A stretch of DNA of 64,000 nucleotides. It comes from a virus. The position numbers were made by a program, and so were the translations under genes. The notes below the pieces were generated by a model that saw nothing but the letters and a program-made list of their open reading frames with translations, did no database searches and was not told where the DNA came from. This document shows positions 32,634 to 64,000 of this stretch, in pieces. Within the stretch, counting starts at the first letter, position 1. Every line of letters begins with the position of its first letter. The stretch lies in the IMG/VR virus record IMGVR_UViG_3300009506_000003, positions 68,594-132,593 of that record; one strand, 5' to 3'.

Positions 32634-32995
32634 GGGCCCGACAGGTTTCGACGTGGACACGGAAGGAAGTGGGAGCGTGCCGCTGATGTATCGCAACAGC
32701 GTCAAAAAGCGATGCAACCTTCAACTGCCAACGACAACGTTGAGCAGGTCGCCCAGCGCCTCGCGGCGTAACAGCGACACCGAGAGCAGACGCCTGCTAT
32801 GCTCTCGGCGCCAAAAGCAGGATGCTGTCTTCATGAGGATGTCCGTCTTCGCATGAGGGCTCAAGACCAAACGGCTGGACAAGGGGTGTCGACCTGTCGG
32901 CGGGTACGGCGCACCGATAAAGAACACCGAATACGCACGTAGAGCTCACTCTGGAAGGTTTGCGGACCCCGGTTCGATTCCGGGCGGGTCCACCA
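32634..32995 (+). ncRNA. ssrA: tmRNA
   Basis: 5' GGGCCCGACAGGTTTCGAC; 3' T-arm GGTTCGATTCC and CGGGTCCACCA with G3-U70; tag frame 32727-32771 ANDNVEQVAQRLAA*. Confidence 0.95.
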
Positions 32996-56601: not shown

Positions 56602-57180
56602 GGCGCTTGTACGGGAGCTTGGAAGAATACCCTCCTACGCAGGTGGGACTCTCCAAGCTCCTGCATCACAACCTCCGGCTACTACATAGAGTCGAAGTTG
56701 TCACCGAAGCTCCGGGACTGGTCCGCTTCGGCCTCGTCTTCAGCTTTTGGGTGTTCTTCTTCACCTTCAACATCTACCCGTGGTGGGCGCGCAGACGTGC
56801 ACAGACGTTGCTCACGCAATACGTTGCTGTCGGGACTGTCGTCACCACTGTGATTGTCGAATGAGGAGGCGCTAGAGGGTCAAGCGGCTACCTGGACTTT
56901 TGGGAGCCGCACCCTCACTCCCCAAGCCCTCATGAGCTGGCGCATGTGCGCCCTCAGCACAGGGTCATGGGTCGTTTTGAGCCTCTCTTTCAGTTTCCTC
57001 AGGTGCTCCTTCGGAGAATCACCTGAGGAGCCGATCTCGGTCGCGTTCCAGACCATGACTTCCTCCTACACATCTTCTATGTATTTTACCACAACGTCAC
57101 ATTTTTGGTTGTTGTTTCACAAAGTTGTGGTAGGAAGATGTCTCACATTCATTTCACCCTCAGATAGGGAGACCAGAGCA

Positions 57181-57378
57181 ATGACTCAGCAAGTGACCAT
57201 CAACGAAGCCCAGAAGGCGGCTCTCAAGACCATCGTGGATGGTGGCCGTCAGTCTGCTGACACCTTCAACAAGCGGACCATCTTCGCCCTCGAGAACCGC
57301 GGTCTCGTCAAGACGACCGAGAACAAGAAGGGCATCTTCGTGGCCCCGACCGCGAAGGGGAAGAAGGCCCTCAACTAG
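57181..57378 (+). CDS. Small winged-helix-like protein
   Basis: GGGAG RBS; RTIFALENRGLV...TAKG; AT-rich upstream region with inverted repeat. Confidence 0.7.
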   Translation: MTQQVTINEAQKAALKTIVDGGRQSADTFNKRTIFALENRGLVKTTENKKGIFVAPTAKGKKALN

Positions 57379-57407
57379 CCAACCGCCACGGCTTTGGTCA
57401 TGGCGTA

Positions 57408-57449
57408 GAGCCCGGCCGCCTTCATTGGTGACCGGGCTCTTTTTTTAGC
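57408..57449 (+). terminator. Intrinsic terminator between convergent units
   Basis: AGAGCCCGGCCGCC ... GGTGACCGGGCTCT then TTTTTTAGC. Confidence 0.8.
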
Positions 57450-57452
57450 GAG

Positions 57453-57543
57453 TGGTGGGTAGGGAAGGATTCGAACCTCCAGTGGCCACTGTCGTGACTC
57501 CGGGTCTACAGCCCGGCGCGTTCAGCCATTTCGCTACCTACCC
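57453..57543 (-). tRNA. tRNA-Tyr(GTA)
   Basis: Cloverleaf, long variable arm, CT-GTA-GA loop, CCA. Confidence 0.93.
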
Positions 57544-57546
57544 ACG

Positions 57547-57620
57547 TGGAAGAGGAGCTGGGAATCGAACCCAGATGAACTGGTCCAAAGCCAGTTGCCC
57601 TGCCATTGAGCGACTCCTCC
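57547..57620 (-). tRNA. tRNA-Gln(TTG)
   Basis: ACTGG-CT-TTG-GA-CCAGT; CCA. Confidence 0.92.
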
Positions 57621-57623
57621 GTT

Positions 57624-57699
57624 TGGATGGGGAGGCGGGGGTCGAACCCACAACCTCCTGATTCAGAATCAGGCGCTCCACCAGTTGAGCTACTCCCCA
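57624..57699 (-). tRNA. tRNA-Gln(CTG)
   Basis: CCTGA-TT-CTG-AA-TCAGG; CCA. Confidence 0.92.
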
Positions 57700-57700
57700 A

Positions 57701-57774
57701 TGGAAGCCGAGACCGGATTCGAACCGGTGATGCCTGGGTTGCAGCCAGGTGCCTTTCCACTTGGCTACTCGGCT
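57701..57774 (-). tRNA. tRNA-Cys(GCA)
   Basis: CCTGG-CT-GCA-AC-CCAGG; U73; CCA. Confidence 0.93.
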
Positions 57775-57775
57775 T

Positions 57776-57849
57776 TGGGGTGACCGCGGAGAATCGAACT
57801 CCGACCATCGGGGCCACAACCCGACGCTCTACCATTGAGCTACGGCCAC
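57776..57849 (-). tRNA. tRNA-His(GTG)
   Basis: TCGGG-TT-GTG-GC-CCCGA; C73; CCA. Confidence 0.93.
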
Positions 57850-57956
57850 AAGGGGACCTCGAGCTGCCTCGGGAGCCCCTTCTGGTCGCAGACGTCAATG
57901 TCGTAGAGCTTGCGCTCATCGCAGTATCTCCAAGTTGTGGACAGAGAGATCCGCGC

Positions 57957-58007
57957 TCAGGCTTGAGCCGGATATTGATGACAGTGCTGGTAGAAGCGAC
58001 TGACCAT
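57957..58007 (-). CDS. Leader peptide MVSRFYQHCHQYPAQA of the His/Cys/Gln/Tyr tRNA cassette
   Basis: ATG 6 nt after -10 TACACT; codons TAC CAG CAC TGT CAT CAA TAT. Confidence 0.75.
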   Translation of the reverse strand: MVSRFYQHCHQYPAQA

Positions 58008-58013
58008 GAGACG

Positions 58014-58043
58014 AGTGTACGACAGGCAGGCAGGACCTGACAA
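58014..58043 (-). promoter_or_regulatory. sigma70-type promoter of the His/Cys/Gln/Tyr cassette
   Basis: TTGTCA-N18-TACACT. Confidence 0.7.
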
Positions 58044-58412
58044 CTAGATTTTCTCTATCGTGTCACCCTTGTCGCTGCAGAGGTACACCGGGAGCTGTGT
58101 GCGCCCGACCTTCCTCTCACCGTTCTGGGTGAACCAAATCAACCTGAAGATGGGGCAGTCCTGCTCATCATCGTGGACAACCACACACGGCCGCGCGGGA
58201 CCATCGAAGAGCATGTGCCTCGTGAGCCGGCCATCATTGCTGATGTCGCTCTCATCGACCTCGAAGTGGTCTCCGTCCCCGTATTCCACCTCGCTCACTT
58301 CACCAAAGACAATCCAGTGAGCTCCTGCGGGGATGGTTCTGTCATATTGGGGGTCGGGGCGCTCCGGGTTTGGAACGCGCCTGTACGCCTGCTTCTGGAA
58401 CTTCAGAATCAT
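58044..58412 (-). CDS. Hypothetical protein inside the tRNA cluster
   Basis: 122-aa ORF; purine-rich RBS region. Confidence 0.6.
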   Translation of the reverse strand: MILKFQKQAYRRVPNPERPDPQYDRTIPAGAHWIVFGEVSEVEYGDGDHFEVDESDISNDGRLTRHMLFDGPARPCVVVHDDEQDCPIFRLIWFTQNGERKVGRTQLPVYLCSDKGDTIEKI

Positions 58413-58483
58413 TTCCTACCTACCTTCCTGTCTGTCCTGCCTGCCTGTCCTCGTCGTAGCACAGGTCACGGACAGAAGGAAAG

Positions 58484-58575
58484 TGGCGGAAGGTGGAGGA
58501 ATCGAACCCCTACGCTTTTGACGCACCATGCTGGTTTTCAAGACCAGTGGCTGGACCATCCCGCCGGCACCTTCC
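58484..58575 (-). tRNA. tRNA-Ser(TGA), probably 8/4 fold
   Basis: CTGGT-CT-TGA-AA-ACCAG; acceptor GGAAGGTG/CACCTTCC; G73; long variable arm. Confidence 0.88.
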
Positions 58576-58577
58576 GT

Positions 58578-58652
58578 TGGTCGGGGTGGGCGGCTTCGAA
58601 CCGCCGACCTCTTGTCCCCCAGACAAGCGCGCTACCCCTGCGCTACACCCCG
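58578..58652 (-). tRNA. tRNA-Pro(GGG)
   Basis: CTTGT-CT-GGG-GG-ACAAG; CCA. Confidence 0.92.
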
Positions 58653-58880
58653 GACCTTGTCAAAGAGGTAGCCCAAACTGCGGCTCCCCTGCTCTTCCTC
58701 TGACATCGAGAAGCCGTAGAACGTGTCGAGGCCCGTGTGCTCCACACCGTCGTCATCGACGATGGACACTCCATTGCCGAGACCGGCCTTCTCGAAAGCC
58801 TTCTGAGCTGACTCCTTGTCTTTGAAGCGCAGCTCATCCGTGCAACATCCACAATCCAACTTCACGTACACCGTGATCAT
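58632..58880 (-). CDS. Hypothetical protein whose stop codon lies inside tRNA-Pro(GGG)
   Basis: AGGAG RBS; phage-like codon use. Confidence 0.55.
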   Translation of the reverse strand: MITVYVKLDCGCCTDELRFKDKESAQKAFEKAGLGNGVSIVDDDGVEHTGLDTFYGFSMSEEEQGSRSLGYLFDKVRGVAQG

Positions 58881-58899
58881 GACGATCTCCTGTTTCGAG

Positions 58900-58975
58900 T
58901 GGTCGGGCTGGCCAGGCTCGAACTGGCGACCTCCTGTCCCCGAGGCAGGCGCGCTACCATCTGCGCTACAGCCCG
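58900..58975 (-). tRNA. tRNA-Pro(CGG)
   Basis: CT-CGG-GG loop; CCA. Confidence 0.9.
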
Positions 58976-58976
58976 A

Positions 58977-59051
58977 TGGTCGGGGTGGTCAGGATCGAAC
59001 TGACGACATCCGGCTCCCAAAACCGGCGCGCTCCCGCTGCGCTACACCCCG
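58977..59051 (-). tRNA. tRNA-Pro(TGG)
   Basis: CCGGT-TT-TGG-GA-GCCGG; CCA. Confidence 0.92.
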
Positions 59052-59067
59052 ACAGTGCGAGAAAAGT

Positions 59068-59157
59068 TGGCGGAGCAGACAGGATTCGAACCTGCGGACG
59101 CCTCACGACGCCTACGGGTTAGCAACCCGCTGCCTTCATCCGCTCGGCCACTGCTCC
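59068..59157 (-). tRNA. tRNA-Ser(GCT)
   Basis: GCGGG-TT-GCT-AA-CCCGT; long variable arm; G73; CCA. Confidence 0.93.
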
Positions 59158-59165
59158 GCTGTGAT

Positions 59166-59279
59166 TCAGCGACTCAGTGGCGAACTGGGTGACGGGGATG
59201 GTGATGGGGAGGACGAGCTCGGGCACAGCACTGCGAGGTTGCAGTTGAGTCGTGCGCGAGTTTCGTTGAGCATCAACAT
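59166..59279 (-). CDS. Leader peptide MLMLNETRARLNCNLAVLCPSSSSPSPSPSPSSPLSR of the Ser/Pro tRNA cassette
   Basis: GAGGAGG RBS; 15 consecutive Ser/Pro codons; stop 8 nt before tRNA-Ser. Confidence 0.75.
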   Translation of the reverse strand: MLMLNETRARLNCNLAVLCPSSSSPSPSPSPSSPLSR

Positions 59280-59299
59280 GATGACGTCCTCCTCAGTCG

Positions 59300-59328
59300 A
59301 ATGTACGATAGCTGTGAGTGTTCGTCAA
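59300..59328 (-). promoter_or_regulatory. sigma70-type promoter of the Ser/Pro cassette
   Basis: TTGACG-N17-TACATT. Confidence 0.75.
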
Positions 59329-59334
59329 CAACTC

Positions 59335-59547
59335 ATGGAGTGGTCAGTCACAAGAATCGAGGGAGTGGTGCGCCACCTCGTCCCGTCCCTCACCAATGTA
59401 GAGGTCAGCTTCCCCTCTCCGGGAGTGGTGCGCGTGCTGATCACAGCCGAGAACGCATGGGGCGTGCAGAGCAGGGTCCAGTCAGTACTCGACCAAGCCC
59501 TGCCCGCCTCCATTCAGCGTGTTGAGGTGTTGGTTGTCAGAGGCTAG
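59335..59547 (+). CDS. Hypothetical protein
   Basis: Short ORF filling the gap; weak RBS. Confidence 0.4.
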   Translation: MEWSVTRIEGVVRHLVPSLTNVEVSFPSPGVVRVLITAENAWGVQSRVQSVLDQALPASIQRVEVLVVRG

Positions 59548-60005
59548 TCGTCAGATGCTTCTGCCCACGCAATGGTGACCGCCCAGTGAGACAAAACTGG
59601 GTCGAACGCTTTGAACGCGGAAGGGTTGTCGATGCCCATCGTCATCTTGCCGTAGCTGAATCCGTTCTCTCCCCAGTCGGCAGTGTATTTCCCACCACGG
59701 GTGTTGAGCTCGACGCTCCCGCTTTCCGGACCACTGTTGGTCACGGTAGTGAGGCCCCACCCGCCTTCCTCGTCCTTCACCATGTCGATGTAGTAGTAGT
59801 CCCCTGGGACGAACTCCTTGCCACCAGCGTCGAAGGACGGTCCACGGAAGTTGAGGGTCATGTCCCCAGAGGGGGTGAACTTCCAGAACTGGGAGTTCTC
59901 TTTGTTGTGCTTGCTCTGCACAACGGGGCCTAGCTCGACGACAAGCGTCTTGTCCCACTTCTTGGTAACGGAAAGGCAACGGAATTTGGCACGTACCTGG
60001 CTCAT
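59544..60005 (-). CDS. Hypothetical phage protein (VRAKFRC...EN..FWKFTPSG)
   Basis: GGAGG RBS; internal duplication pattern. Confidence 0.7.
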   Translation of the reverse strand: MSQVRAKFRCLSVTKKWDKTLVVELGPVVQSKHNKENSQFWKFTPSGDMTLNFRGPSFDAGGKEFVPGDYYYIDMVKDEEGGWGLTTVTNSGPESGSVELNTRGGKYTADWGENGFSYGKMTMGIDNPSAFKAFDPVLSHWAVTIAWAEASDD

Positions 60006-60090
60006 CTCTTCCTCCAAACGGTTGAATGTGAGCCGCGCTGTTGACCTGGATCGCGACGTGCCAGTTACCTCCACCGTAGCATGGTCAAGG

Positions 60091-60690
60091 TCAGAAGTCA
60101 GCTTCTTCGAGCAGCGTGTAGGTGAAGCCATCCCCAAACAAGGATGAGGACTTCTTGGCCAGCGAGTACAAAAACTGGTGCTGGAAGGGGTCAGCCACCA
60201 CTTGGCAGCCAGCACTCCACTTGTCCACAACCGTACTGGCCTGGCTAGACCCAGCGTGGTGGAGGTTGATGCCGAACATCCCTTCCTGGATGGAATCCGG
60301 GTCGAGGTCGAGGACCTCGTCCTTGTTGTTGTCCCGGTAGACTTTCAGAGGGCTCTTCTGCACCAGAGCTGGATACCCGCTGTGGAGCCCGAGCTTGAAA
60401 GCGCCCCGGTACTGTCCTGGGACCAGGATGGCGGTACCGTTCACGTTCATCGGGTGCTCCCGGTAGTAGACACCGGGGTCCGTGGTGGCGGGGAACATGA
60501 AGCAGTTCCATCTGTCATTGAAAAGGTACATCACGCCGATCACATCGTTGAAGGTGTTGGCGCGGTTGTCCAGGGTCCGAATGCCGAAGATGTTGAGGTC
60601 GTAGCCACCCTTCGACTGGTCACCGAAGACGAGGTAGTTCTTCGAGCGCATGACGGCTTTGATGAGCTTCGCATCGCTGAGTACAAGCAT
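60091..60690 (-). CDS. Putative peptidoglycan hydrolase/endolysin (YkuD-like H...WSAGCQV)
   Basis: LNIFGIR...FND...TTDPG...GINLH...WSAGCQV...FTYTL; AGGAGG RBS. Confidence 0.6.
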   Translation of the reverse strand: MLVLSDAKLIKAVMRSKNYLVFGDQSKGGYDLNIFGIRTLDNRANTFNDVIGVMYLFNDRWNCFMFPATTDPGVYYREHPMNVNGTAILVPGQYRGAFKLGLHSGYPALVQKSPLKVYRDNNKDEVLDLDPDSIQEGMFGINLHHAGSSQASTVVDKWSAGCQVVADPFQHQFLYSLAKKSSSLFGDGFTYTLLEEADF

Positions 60691-60722
60691 GTAGGCCTCC
60701 TATCCAGAAGAGCCTACCACGA

Positions 60723-60806
60723 TGGTGCGGCGGGAGGGAGTCGAACCCTCACCCTTTCGGCCCGGATTTTAAGTCCGGTGTGTCTACCTGATTCCACCAC
60801 CGCCGC
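60723..60806 (-). tRNA. tRNA-Leu(TAA)
   Basis: CCGGA-CT-TAA-AA-TCCGG; variable arm; A73; CCA. Confidence 0.93.
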
Positions 60807-60807
60807 G

Positions 60808-60892
60808 TGGTGCGCGGGGCGGGATTCGAACCCGCATGCCGAAGCACCGAGGTTTGAGCTCGGCGTGTCTACCTTGCTTCCACCACCCGCGC
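60808..60892 (-). tRNA. tRNA-Leu(CAA)
   Basis: CCGAG-CT-CAA-AC-CTCGG; CCA. Confidence 0.93.
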
Positions 60893-60966
60893 TCGAGCTG
60901 TGCGCCCTGGAACCCTGTCACAGCTCAATGGCGCCCTCCTATGTGCCTGACGCCACCCACTTCGAT

Positions 60967-61052
60967 TGGTGCCCGAGGAGAGATTCGAACTCTCACGCCG
61001 AAGCACGGGTTTCTGAGACCCGCGTGTCTACCAAAGATTCCACCACTCGGGC
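60967..61052 (-). tRNA. tRNA-Leu(CAG)
   Basis: CGGGT-CT-CAG-AA-ACCCG; CCA. Confidence 0.93.
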
Positions 61053-61053
61053 T

Positions 61054-61139
61054 TGGTCCGCGAGGGGAGACTCGAACTCCCACGCACAAGGCGCCGGTCC
61101 CTCAGACCGGTGCGTCTACCTGGATTCCGCCACTCGCGG
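61054..61139 (-). tRNA. tRNA-Leu(GAG)
   Basis: CCGGT-CT-GAG-GG-ACCGG; CCA. Confidence 0.93.
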
Positions 61140-61159
61140 ACGGGTTTGCTTGGGAGCTG

Positions 61160-61237
61160 CTAGCGCAACAGGGATAGCAGCCCGGTGCTAAGGTGCGGGC
61201 CGCGTAACAGGGACAGGACTCTGTGGTCGCGCTGCAT
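61160..61237 (-). CDS. Leader peptide MQRDHRVLSLLRGPHLSTGLLSLLR of the Leu tRNA cassette
   Basis: ATG 6 nt after -10 TAAGGT; 8 Leu codons (CTG x4, TTA, CTT, CTA, TTG). Confidence 0.72.
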   Translation of the reverse strand: MQRDHRVLSLLRGPHLSTGLLSLLR

Positions 61238-61243
61238 GGTCAC

Positions 61244-61273
61244 ACCTTACGCGCTCCGAAGCCTCTTCGTCAA
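61244..61273 (-). promoter_or_regulatory. sigma70-type promoter of the Leu cassette
   Basis: TTGACG-N18-TAAGGT. Confidence 0.7.
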
Positions 61274-61351
61274 GTCCTCAAAAAACCATAGCCGTTTGCG
61301 TAATAAGGTCCCTGAAGCTAACTCTGTTCACTTTTCACTGGAGGATCTCAA

Positions 61352-62419
61352 ATGCAGGTAGCAGCATCCGCCGCAGGCCCTGAAAAGACGGGTCACGGCA
61401 AACGTCCTCGCATCTCTGTCAAAGAGAAGCGGAAGCAAATGGCCATCGAGCTCTTCGCCAAAGCGGTGGAAGAGGCCGAGAAGCCGGCTCAGTCAGACTT
61501 CATCGTCCCCAAAGTCGACTTTGCAATGATTGGCCCCAAAGAAGCCAAGGAGCTTCTCCAAAAGAGCCAGGGCAACAGAAAGATCCGTGAGCTTCACGTT
61601 CGCTGGCTGGAAAAAGTCATGCGTGACGGGAAATGGGTGTTCGGACCTCCCATCATCATCGATCTCAACGGAGTCCTCATTGGTGGGCACCACAGGCTCC
61701 ACGCCGTCATAAGGTCAGGGCTCTACGTTCCCATGACCGTCATGAAGGGGGCTGACCCGCAGCTCAACGAGTGGACCAACCAACACAAGGAAGCCAAACT
61801 GGGTGACGAGATTCATCGCTACGGGATGAACAACGCCAACGCGCGTGGGGCCATAGTGAGGTTGGCCGCCGAACTCACCGCCAAGAGGAGAATCCCCGTC
61901 AACTCCTTTAGCGACTATGCTGAGTGGGCTCGGGTCTTCAAGGGAGTCGACTGGGTGGTAGAGAATCTGGTGGGCAAAGACCCCTGGAGGAAATCATCCA
62001 TCACGGGAGCTTTCGCTTACGCCTACAACACTGACCCAGATGCCGTGAAGCTCTTCTGCACGAAGATGGTCACTGGGGAAGGCCTTTCAAAAACAGACCC
62101 GGTGCTGGCGTTCCGAAATTGGTTTCTTTGGTACACTGCTACCGACAAGGACAAGAAGGATGTCCGCAAGCACGCCATTGCAGGCGGTGGGGATGAGCGG
62201 AAGCGAGTCTACACGTTCAAGGTGCTGCACTGTATCCGTGCGGCTATCGAGAAGAAGAAGCCAAGAACCTTGAAGTCCTTGAGGATGGAAGTTTCTCTCG
62301 ACGATCTTGAGTACTTCAGGCAAGCCAACGAGACCAGGGCGGCCAAAAAGATGGTCAACTACTGGTCCGAGCCGAGGATGTCTTCCGAGGAATTTCTCTC
62401 GTACCTCAAAGAGGGGTAG
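61352..62419 (+). CDS. ParB-like N-terminal domain protein
   Basis: I.P..AKELL...NRKI...M..GKW...III...G.LIGGHHRLHAV; GGAGG RBS; ATAAG promoter at 61303. Confidence 0.7.
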   Translation: MQVAASAAGPEKTGHGKRPRISVKEKRKQMAIELFAKAVEEAEKPAQSDFIVPKVDFAMIGPKEAKELLQKSQGNRKIRELHVRWLEKVMRDGKWVFGPPIIIDLNGVLIGGHHRLHAVIRSGLYVPMTVMKGADPQLNEWTNQHKEAKLGDEIHRYGMNNANARGAIVRLAAELTAKRRIPVNSFSDYAEWARVFKGVDWVVENLVGKDPWRKSSITGAFAYAYNTDPDAVKLFCTKMVTGEGLSKTDPVLAFRNWFLWYTATDKDKKDVRKHAIAGGGDERKRVYTFKVLHCIRAAIEKKKPRTLKSLRMEVSLDDLEYFRQANETRAAKKMVNYWSEPRMSSEEFLSYLKEG

Positions 62420-62431
62420 AGGAGGTGCCCC

Positions 62432-63565
62432 ATGATAATGAGATTGAACCGAAATAAGAGCCTTCCGGACCACATCAGCGGGAGTGAACTCTTCACCATG
62501 ATCGAGCCCTACAAGGTCAAGGGGCCCGGAAGCAAGAGGTTCGGGCGCAAGAAGTTCACAAGGGACATCCTCAACGAGTACACCGATGAGGTCAACTTCA
62601 CCCCAAAAGCAATCGTCTACGACAAAGGAGACGGAGGAACCAAAGAGACAAGAGGACTCAACGAGAAAGAGGTCAGAAAGATTCTGCATTTTCTGCATAG
62701 GGATGGCTACATTGGCTCAGCAACCATCACTCTCCATAAGAGGTTCGGCCTTTCCAAGGATGAGAACACTGAGGTGGTTGGAGTCATAGGTCGAAGCTCT
62801 AGCAGCGCACCTCTTGAGGAAGCAGTGTCTCCTTCTACTCACTCATCTCCGCCTGCAGGGAAAAGAGAGACGTGGGGCGAAGCCAACTCTCTCCTCGTTC
62901 GAGCGGTAAAGAAGAACGTACCCCTTTCGAACCTGATCAGCTCACTCATCTCTGCAGGTCTCAGACAAGAGCCGTTACCGGCGGAAACTGTTCTGAGGCA
63001 AATGGAGCGCCTACGTGATTCTGGAGAGATCAACAAAGAGAGCCTCATCCAGTACAAGCGCAACAACGGAATAGCCGCCAGAGGAGGATACAAAAGGCAA
63101 AGAGCAGAGCCAGAGAGGGTGACCGAAGCCAAGTCTTCTTTGAAATCCCCATGGGGGAAGCATCAAAGCACCCTGCTGTCCAAGCTCATCAATGAGGTAG
63201 ACCCTCTACCTGGTGAGACAGGAGCTACCTATTTTGAAAGAGTGGCCGGGCAATTCAACGAGTCAGGATTGCGTGTGGTCACGGGCCCATCGTGCAGGAA
63301 GCAAGCTCCAAAACTCATTGGCAAGGGAATCACGAGTGAGCGATACTCTCTTGTCAATCGAAGTAGAGAGGAGAAGCTCCCCGCTGGGAGCCCCACTCCT
63401 ATCGAGAACGAGATCCAACGAAGAAAGGAAGAATCGTTGGGCATCAATCTCGAATCGGCTCTCACGGAAGAGGCAAAAGAAAAAGCCATTGAGATGTACC
63501 TCACTCCAGAAAGAAGGAGGGAGGCATACCGAGGCTATTTCAAGTCTTTGGGAGTCAACATATGA
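62432..63565 (+). CDS. Hypothetical protein
   Basis: AGGAGG RBS; 377 aa; lower GC than its surroundings. Confidence 0.6.
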   Translation: MIMRLNRNKSLPDHISGSELFTMIEPYKVKGPGSKRFGRKKFTRDILNEYTDEVNFTPKAIVYDKGDGGTKETRGLNEKEVRKILHFLHRDGYIGSATITLHKRFGLSKDENTEVVGVIGRSSSSAPLEEAVSPSTHSSPPAGKRETWGEANSLLVRAVKKNVPLSNLISSLISAGLRQEPLPAETVLRQMERLRDSGEINKESLIQYKRNNGIAARGGYKRQRAEPERVTEAKSSLKSPWGKHQSTLLSKLINEVDPLPGETGATYFERVAGQFNESGLRVVTGPSCRKQAPKLIGKGITSERYSLVNRSREEKLPAGSPTPIENEIQRRKEESLGINLESALTEEAKEKAIEMYLTPERRREAYRGYFKSLGVNI

Positions 63566-63571
63566 AAAGGA

Positions 63572-63603
63572 GAGGGGTGCCGTCTGAGCCCCTCTTTTTT
63601 AGC
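63572..63603 (+). terminator. Intrinsic terminator
   Basis: GAGGGG...CCCCTC then TTTTTTAGC. Confidence 0.65.
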
Positions 63604-63606
63604 GTG

Positions 63607-63682
63607 TGGCGGGAGTGGAGGGAGTCGAACCCTCAGCCATCGGGTTAACGGCCCGCTGCTCTACCATCTGAGCTTCACTCCC
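63607..63682 (-). tRNA. tRNA-Asn(GTT)
   Basis: CGGG-CC-GTT-AA-CCCG; G73; CCA. Confidence 0.9.
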
Positions 63683-63777
63683 GAGTGGGGTGGCGTCAGA
63701 GGTGCATTCCCCGTGACGCCGGCCTACCGTGACGAGACAAGATGCCTCTGCTCGCTCGTGAGGGCACATCCCCATAA

Positions 63778-63851
63778 TGGTGGACCAGGTTGGTGTCGAC
63801 CCAACGTCTCGAGCTCTTCAGACTCGTGCTAAACCCCTCAGCTACTGGTCC
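63778..63851 (-). tRNA. tRNA-Phe(GAA)
   Basis: CGAGT-CT-GAA-GA-GCTCG; atypical T-loop GTCGACA; CCA. Confidence 0.85.
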
Positions 63852-63858
63852 AAGTTTT

Positions 63859-63932
63859 TGGTGGAAGTGACAGGAATCGAACCTGCATCTCTCGGGTGCA
63901 AACCGAGGGCTCTCCCGTTGAGCTACACCCCC
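63859..63932 (-). tRNA. tRNA-Ala(TGC)
   Basis: CTCGG-TT-TGC-AC-CCGAG; G3-U70; CCA. Confidence 0.92.
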
Positions 63933-63940
63933 ACGCGATC

Positions 63941-64000
63941 TGGAGCCGGTGACAGGAGTCGAACCTGCAACCCTCTGCTTACAAGGCAGACGCTCTTCCG
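63941..64000 (-). tRNA. tRNA-Thr(TGT), 5' end outside window
   Basis: TCTGC-CT-TGT-AA-GCAGA; T-arm; CCA. Confidence 0.88.

Follow-up and report, generated by a model that had tools for sequence, protein, structure and literature searches.

The 64,000-nucleotide (nt) stretch of DNA analysed here, which we call the window, forms the final 64 kb of one 132,593-nt virus record (IMGVR_UViG_3300009506_000003; G+C content, 58%), and towards its end transfer RNA (tRNA) genes are grouped into cassettes, headed by short open reading frames (ORFs) rich in the amino acids that the tRNAs of the same cassette carry. PHROG matches to UvsX-like recombinase, topoisomerase-like, ParB-like and endolysin-like proteins identify the record as a phage. 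Between positions 57453 and 64000 every tRNA gene lies on the minus strand. ARAGORN with default settings returned 16 tRNAs and one transfer-messenger RNA (tmRNA) for the window, and overlooked a tRNA-Leu(cag) gene that Rfam scores at 52.2 bits (60970-61052) and that relaxed ARAGORN also calls as cag. This gene and the adjacent tRNA-Leu(gag) form an 87-nt tandem duplication (60966-61136; 76% matches), in which the cag copy has a weak D-arm. Rfam also adds a truncated tRNA-Thr at the contig terminus, window base 64000, which falls within that gene; no terminal overlap was found, and contigs from public runs extend 132-236 nt past this base.

All three cassettes with a visible 5' end, those for Leu, for Ser/Pro and for His/Cys/Gln/Tyr (H/C/Q/Y), share one layout, as a preliminary description of this DNA had reported: a promoter-like site is followed by a short ORF, hereafter the leader, and then by the tRNAs. 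Equally well founded was its observation that each leader is enriched in the amino acids of its own cassette, with Leu at eight of 25 residues in the first, 15 consecutive Ser/Pro residues in the second, and the heptad Tyr-Gln-His-Cys-His-Gln-Tyr in the third. Leaderless mRNAs are predicted for the Leu and H/C/Q/Y leaders because their ATG lies 6 nt after the -10 hexamer; the Ser/Pro leader is preceded by a Shine-Dalgarno-like purine run (59294-59288). The distance from the stop codon to the first tRNA is 20 nt for the Leu leader and 6 nt for the Ser/Pro leader, and the H/C/Q/Y leader is separated from tRNA-His by a 107-nt spacer. A stricter promoter scan listed two of the three leader sites (59328 and 58043), and its three sites in the 7-kb region, set against 1.7 +/- 1.2 in shuffled sequences, are not significant alone. 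Our own looser pattern found 11 sites on both strands of the 132.6-kb contig, three of which are the leader sites.

The correspondence between leaders and cassettes is unlikely to be accidental. Over the six frames of the contig, the longest run of Ser/Pro residues is the 15 of the Ser/Pro leader (next 10, 9 and 9), and the longest run of H/C/Q/Y residues is the heptad of the H/C/Q/Y leader (next 6 and 6). When the 954 ATG-initiated ORFs of 10-60 codons were ranked for each cassette's amino-acid set, the H/C/Q/Y leader came first, the Leu leader fourth and the Ser/Pro leader sixth, with binomial p values for the own set of 6.4e-4 for the Leu leader and 4.2e-4 and 6.0e-5 for the other two. The signal follows the diagonal of the leader-by-cassette matrix, all nine other cells of which (the set of the fourth cassette included) gave p values of at least 0.086. 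Blocks of tRNA genes within the cassettes served as internal controls and show no upstream enrichment (Leu caa/taa, p = 0.47; Pro ggg/Ser tga, 0.13; Asn, 0.27; Ala/Phe, 0.77).

Claims made at the level of codons fared less well. According to the preliminary description, synonymous codons are varied so that nearly every isoacceptor is probed. A cognate codon is present in the leaders for 14 of 14 cassette tRNAs, but full coverage is what the peptides and the codon usage of the phage lead one to expect (P = 0.72, 0.81 and 0.98), and the observed codon diversity is reached by chance with P = 0.15, 0.73 and 0.06 for the three leaders. Because coverage and variety are both expected, the signal sits at the amino-acid level. 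Rare codons do occur, as had been stated, among them TTA (0.9% of Leu codons) and CTA (4.2%), but CTA (one codon) has no strictly cognate tRNA in its own cassette; the same holds for TCC (three codons).

Table 1. Features of the tRNA region, with positions numbered from the first base of the window
Feature	Position	Strand	Details
Leu cassette	60723-61139	-	tRNA-Leu gag 61054-61139, cag 60967-61052, caa 60808-60892, taa 60723-60806 (ARAGORN, Rfam)
Leu leader ORF	61160-61237	-	ATG 61237; 25 codons + stop; 8 Leu in 5 codon types; predicted leaderless
Leu promoter-like site	61244-61273	-	-35 61273-61268, spacer 18 nt, -10 61249-61244; found by our own looser pattern only, absent from the stricter scan
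Ser/Pro cassette	58484-59157	-	Ser gct, Pro tgg, Pro cgg, 82-codon ORF (58632-58880), Pro ggg, Ser tga
Ser/Pro leader ORF	59166-59279	-	ATG 59279; 37 codons + stop; 15 consecutive Ser/Pro at 59222-59178
Ser/Pro promoter-like site	59300-59328	-	9/12 matches, spacer 17 nt; both scans
H/C/Q/Y cassette	57453-57849	-	His gtg, Cys gca, Gln ctg, Gln ttg, Tyr gta
Structured spacer	57850-57971	-	hairpin A 57971-57951 (over the stop), hairpin B ~57955-57920, GC-rich hairpin ~57881-57850 abutting tRNA-His
H/C/Q/Y leader ORF	57957-58007	-	ATG 58007; 16 codons + stop; heptad 57992-57972; predicted leaderless
H/C/Q/Y promoter-like site	58014-58043	-	9/12 matches, spacer 18 nt; both scans
Fourth cassette	63607-64000	-	Thr tgt (partial, 63944-64000), Ala tgc, Phe gaa, Asn gtt; 5' end beyond the contig

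One of the leaders is conserved. A scan of metagenomes with the 122-residue protein encoded between the Ser/Pro and H/C/Q/Y cassettes returned only a 1,169-nt contig (L055) of lower G+C content, whose protein is 41% identical to that of the window. Its gene order is the same as in the window: tRNA-Pro, tRNA-Ser(tga), the protein gene, a promoter-like site, an ORF, tRNA-His and the start of tRNA-Cys. The promoter-like site (943-972) has an 18-nt spacer, as in the window, and the ATG again lies 6 nt after the -10 hexamer. The ORF has 14 codons, and seven of its 13 residues belong to the H/C/Q/Y set. Within the heptad, Gln replaces the first Tyr through two base changes and so stays within the set, and one further change is synonymous; outside it there are two synonymous third-position changes, the remaining replacements being at codons 2 and 4. 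Identity in aligned columns is 80% for the leader ORF, close to that of tRNA-His (81%), and 67% for the protein gene. The expectation that relatives would also carry a matched leader is borne out by L055 but not by another distant relative, L027, which has no Leu-rich leader.

Analogous leaders were found in cultured phages whose tRNA regions were fetched as controls. Those of L073, RcXuper and S-SKS1 contained no matched leaders, but Gurke, Magneto and CcrPW (Dolichocephalovirinae, an independent lineage of Caulobacter and Brevundimonas phages) each carry two arrays behind short ORFs enriched in the amino acids of their own array. One leader type has own-array p values of 3.3e-4, 1.1e-5 and 1.1e-6 in these three phages, with at least 0.9 for the sets of other arrays; for the second type they are 1.4e-3, 1.8e-3 and 6.7e-3, with at least 0.2 for other sets. 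In Gurke, the leader of the Val/Ile/Gln type starts 7 nt after a -10 hexamer. A terminator (14 pairs plus a T-run) stands downstream of leaders of this type and is kept in all three aligned phages with one compensatory pair. An 11-nt stretch within the ORF differs from the 3' arm of the terminator at one of 11 bases and should therefore be able to pair with the 5' arm; in the consensus fold this stretch is itself paired with upstream Val codons. As modelled, the Val/Ile/Gln-type leader has the 1:2 / 2:3 / 3:4 layout of trp-type attenuators.

These leaders are widespread among relatives of phiCbK. A 223-nt Magneto query covering the Val/Ile/Gln-type leader matched 49 phage records, including that of phiCbK, and the annotation under the matches is absent, a terminator, or a hypothetical protein. 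Directly upstream of both arrays, the phiCbK record annotates a hypothetical gene of 45 codons together with predicted terminators. The available part of the phiCbK genome paper reports that Rfam detected only tRNAs as functional RNA elements, and that part uses neither 'attenuat' nor 'leader' (PMC3556154). Counts of single amino acids, from which the RB23 row and likewise L093, cut off at the start of its record, are left out, indicate that natural leader variation partly tracks the arrays among these related phages, in which independent events are few. All four leaders whose array is without tRNA-Asn contain one Asn, and the five with it contain 1, 3, 3, 2 and 3; Phe counts are 2, 3, 2 and 2 with tRNA-Phe and 3, 1, 1, 1 and 1 without. 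Leaders of the Pro/Lys/Leu type in six phages consist almost wholly (35/38 to 42/44 residues) of Pro, Lys, Leu, His, Ala, Ser or Thr, these being the amino acids of all tRNAs found across the arrays of the family, whatever a single phage retains. The 45-codon 'hypothetical proteins' before Pro/Lys/Leu arrays (Magneto, L074 20736-20873; phiCbK, L086 745-882; Rogue, L087 605-742; BL10, L088 603-740) are probably leader peptides.

To describe the leader RNAs of the window we relied on folding, every result of which is a thermodynamic prediction. Between the H/C/Q/Y leader and tRNA-His lies a structured spacer (Table 1), about 65 nt of which are absent from L055, and hairpins A and B recur there. 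Hairpin A, over the stop codon, has 16 of 16 cells paired across the two sequences, with one compensatory and one one-sided change, although this is no statistical proof, as 235 of 500 shuffles reach the same pairing. By our reading of the folds, alternative pairings exist in the Leu leader; in the Ser/Pro leader, Ser codons within the Ser/Pro run pair with the purine run taken as its ribosome-binding site. Folding a leader together with its first tRNA rather than separately gained 14.0 kcal/mol for the Ser/Pro leader and 13.7 kcal/mol for the H/C/Q/Y leader, gains reached by 0.7% and 1.3%, respectively, of equal-length random genomic segments (n = 150). In these joint folds the 3' part of the leader pairs with the 5' half of the tRNA, and in the Ser/Pro case the pairing segment consists of the last codons of the ORF. 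The Ser/Pro leader also has a strong excess of C over G (47% and 17% over 78 nt), which places it at the 99.97th percentile for the contig, ahead of the Leu leader (97.5th) and the H/C/Q/Y leader (91.8th). As a separate observation, the 3' arm of hairpin B (from 57919 downstream on the minus strand; ~1055-1068 in L055) is Shine-Dalgarno-like and has a start codon within 7-8 nt. The frame from this start runs into tRNA-His, for 137 codons without a stop in the window, and hairpin B would mask the site; the arrangement may be due to chance.

We favour the interpretation that the leaders are ribosome-read sensors of cognate tRNA supply, each heading a cassette that it holds under negative feedback, and we regard this as probable, if well short of assured. 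Each leader would be a cis-acting sensor ORF at the start of the cassette, transcribed from a promoter of its own, and would be translated as a leaderless message in two cases and by means of a Shine-Dalgarno sequence in the Ser/Pro case. Because a leader is written mainly in the amino acids of its cassette, ribosomes would slow on it only when the tRNAs of that cassette are scarce or uncharged. The position of the ribosome would set the fold of the leader RNA and hence the yield of mature tRNA, such that stalling would lead to more tRNA and accumulated phage tRNAs would lead to less. As the output step we rank first a change of fold in which the 3' part of the leader pairs either with the 5' half of the first tRNA or with the unpaired stretch just upstream of it, and which would thereby control tRNA folding and 5' processing. 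Second comes Rho-dependent termination controlled by whether ribosomes occupy a C-rich leader, which would be plausible for the Ser/Pro leader only. The more specific proposal of a 'processing attenuator', whose output would be tRNA maturation instead of transcription termination and in which the position of the ribosome would decide on leader-tRNA pairing or closure of the stretch ahead of the tRNA, gate folding of the array and its processing by RNase P and so supply replacement tRNAs on demand, for example after depletion by a host nuclease, is doubtful. Purely as speculation, the leaders might be linked to host anticodon nucleases.

The preliminary description had proposed a tRNA-sensing attenuation system. 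Its sensing logic is supported by the statistics, by conservation in L055 and by the cultured analogue, whereas attenuation of the classical kind is not supported in the window phage, in which no terminator lies ahead of any cassette whose start is visible. The folds of the leader regions contain hairpins without U-tracts, and the L055 leader likewise has no terminator-like site. Canonical terminators with a hairpin and T-run do occur in the same region (57407-57447 and ~63570-63600), so their absence between leaders and tRNAs is meaningful; moreover, with stops 6 and 20 nt from the first tRNA, two of the leaders leave no room for one.

Several observations weigh against the sensor interpretation itself. 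On the minus strand of positions 57000-61400, the stretches that separate the leaders from their tRNAs contain no intrinsic terminator (hairpin plus U-tract), and no clear switch emerges: hairpins A and B are both present in the minimum-energy fold, with only 3 base pairs shared. The joint fold of the Leu leader is ordinary, its gain being reached by 34% of controls, and the pairing of the H/C/Q/Y leader with its tRNA comes largely from the 65-nt insert, the gain in L055 being 3.7 kcal/mol with 3 cross pairs. The C-over-G excess of the Ser/Pro leader is a trivial outcome of its codons, and the L055 leader has none (C 21, G 23). With peptide and phage codon usage as the null, the match at the codon level is no better than chance. 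Conservation rests on one readable relative, L055, and L027 has one tRNA-Leu for which the best upstream ORF reaches only p = 0.034. Among the cultured phages, one leader type does not follow the loss of tRNAs: Rogue has an array of Pro, Lys and Leu tRNAs only, yet its leader still contains Ser (9), Ala (9), His (3) and Thr (8). Finally, the geometry of the folds is such that stalling would favour the hairpins adjoining the tRNA, and the sign of the response might then differ from the one proposed.

This last point leads to the alternative that survives best, although we judge it unlikely: that the leaders are translated but that stalling lowers output or has no homeostatic role, so that they act by licensing or positive feedback. 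Transit of the ribosome might, for example, keep RNA polymerase coupled or open structure before the first tRNA. As we read the folds, a ribosome on the early sensor codons leaves or favours the tRNA-adjoining hairpins, and with stop codons so close to the first tRNA (6 and 20 nt), a ribosome terminating there would extend into it. Such an arrangement would have no obvious benefit to the phage, however, and in the cultured phages the leaders have the classical arrangement, in which stalling frees an anti-terminator segment.

Quite improbable, in our view, is that the ORFs are untranslated and that what is conserved is an RNA or DNA element (a promoter, operator, processing site or RNA that pairs with an anticodon loop), with the codon content as a by-product. 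L055 is indeed conserved at the nucleotide level, and this includes the promoter spacer, which is an arm of a conserved 14-16-nt inverted repeat; by our reading of the joint fold, the loop of hairpin B is also complementary to the anticodon loop of tRNA-His. Yet the frame, the start and an in-set heptad are kept in L055 through a two-base codon change, three of the other changes are at synonymous third positions, and three unrelated leaders match their own cassettes at the amino-acid level. Rfam searches of positions 57000-64000 with E values up to 1 yielded tRNA-like and weak chance matches only, and neither a T-box nor any other cis-regulatory family. Least credible of all is that the ORFs encode small Leu-rich or Ser/Pro-rich proteins with functions of their own or arose by chance in low-complexity DNA: a 12-nt near-duplication accounts for part of the Ser/Pro run, the Leu ORF contains a direct repeat, and Leu-rich and Ser/Pro-rich frames are common in GC-rich DNA, with comparable ORFs elsewhere in the contig, but it is very unlikely that ORFs ranked first, fourth and sixth of 954 would stand directly before the matching cassettes, and matches to the heptad pattern elsewhere (26, 18 and 7) are never beside tRNA genes.

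Comparison with known systems helps to place the leaders. Leader-peptide attenuators have a short 5' ORF enriched in codons whose decoding reports on the regulated pathway. Those of trp, his, leu, thr, ilv, pheA and pheST resemble the window leaders in this respect, and the ilv leader also in that several amino acids are sensed at once. They differ in that here the regulated genes are the tRNAs themselves, there is no intrinsic terminator and no clear 1:2 / 2:3 / 3:4 switch, and two of the leaders are predicted to be leaderless. T-boxes too are leader RNAs that read a specific tRNA and control read-through. Unlike the proposed sensors they involve no translation, since the RNA itself binds the tRNA by its acceptor end and by way of a specifier codon, and no match to a stem I specifier loop or anti-terminator was found here (Rfam, E up to 1). 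The phiCbK-like leaders share with those of the window a promoter-like site, a short array-matched ORF, a tRNA array and specificity for their own array, but they show no sequence similarity to the window, one type has a conserved terminator and a competing segment within the ORF, and the Pro/Lys/Leu type matches the family-wide union of tRNAs rather than the array of a single phage.

Read-out without an intrinsic terminator has precedents. A review of Rho-dependent termination, in the part available, tabulates hisL and describes the attenuators tnaC, speFL, cruR, mgtL, corL and mgtM, which depend on an upstream ORF (uORF) and none of which, in that part, regulates tRNA genes (PMC12360218). 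As described there, a translated uORF controls read-through and a C-rich site is masked or exposed by the ribosome, which is similar to what we propose as the second-ranked output; here, however, only the Ser/Pro leader clearly shows a C-over-G excess like that of a Rho utilization (rut) site, and L055 has none. Mycobacterial polycysteine ORFs, which are leaderless and short, attenuate a downstream operon according to the available part of a preprint (bioRxiv 10.1101/834739). They resemble the window leaders, two of which are predicted to be leaderless, in their runs of sensor codons and differ, as far as that part describes them, in that they control protein genes related to cysteine, respond to a single amino acid and belong to cells, not phages.

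The surroundings of the cassettes contain further features. A perfect 16-nt inverted repeat (58021-58036 / 58434-58449) brackets the gene for the 122-residue protein between the two cassettes, and its downstream arm is the spacer of the H/C/Q/Y promoter-like site. L055 has a 14-nt repeat in the same places (589-602 / 949-962), both arms having changed together. The repeat could form a long-range RNA stem that excises the mRNA from the tRNA precursor, or could be a pair of operators. An exact 13-nt direct repeat (59361-59373 / 59421-59433, 60 nt apart), which may be a regulator-binding site, lies in a gap of 215 nt that precedes the Ser/Pro promoter. The tmRNA gene (32634-32995) encodes a 14-residue tag, and together with the tRNA cassettes it suggests a heavy investment by this phage in sustained translation. 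In L055, a protein encoded just upstream of tRNA-Pro (1-394) has a release-factor-type Gly-Gly-Gln motif, read by eye; judged from its translation alone, it is a putative peptidyl-tRNA hydrolase or ArfB-like protein.

Searches for further relatives returned little. The phage collection contained no near DNA match to the window, its distant matches being tRNA genes only, and no close cultured relative was found by conserved protein (best identity below 44%). Six neighbouring proteins had no match in Pfam, and PHROGs gave little. In the viral collection, the 199-residue neighbour protein identified 26 loci, none with a cassette, and the 122- and 355-residue proteins had no match; a protein search found a homologue of the 122-residue protein (P0002) with 80% identity. 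The 153-residue protein identified two loci in the viral collection, in a record with three scattered tRNAs (L027) and in one with none (L028). At ~9215-9285 of L027, a -10-like hexamer is followed after 6 nt by the ATG of a three-codon ORF, Met-Leu-Glu, before the lone tRNA-Leu(taa). Degenerate heptad patterns gave 26 and 18 matches in the viral collection and 7 in the genome collection, none of them beside tRNA genes; only the L073 record has tRNAs at all, more than 6 kb from its match. Among the matches listed from public runs are variant contigs, ~85-91% identical, that span the H/C/Q/Y and Ser/Pro leaders.

A search of the full-text literature, the scope of which did not extend to supplements or to ~1.7 million older PMC articles, so that an older report may exist, found no published account of leader peptides before tRNA genes. 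Likewise, the array leaders that we found in phiCbK-like phages have no description in the searchable papers. Since these cultured Caulobacter and Brevundimonas phages, phiCbK among them, carry analogous leaders with classical terminators, the idea can be tested at the bench; the leaders of the window phage, which lack a terminator, suggest that read-out can also take another form. It has long been asked why phages carry tRNAs and by what means their supply is timed and dosed. If the leaders act as we propose, a cis-acting sensor would tie each set of tRNAs to the speed at which its own codons are decoded, and the tRNA supply of the phage would be driven by demand. There would also be a connection to present research on tRNA-attacking host nucleases. 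Control of the kind known from the trp and his operons would in that case govern genes that encode the very molecule being sensed, and so would close an autoregulatory loop.

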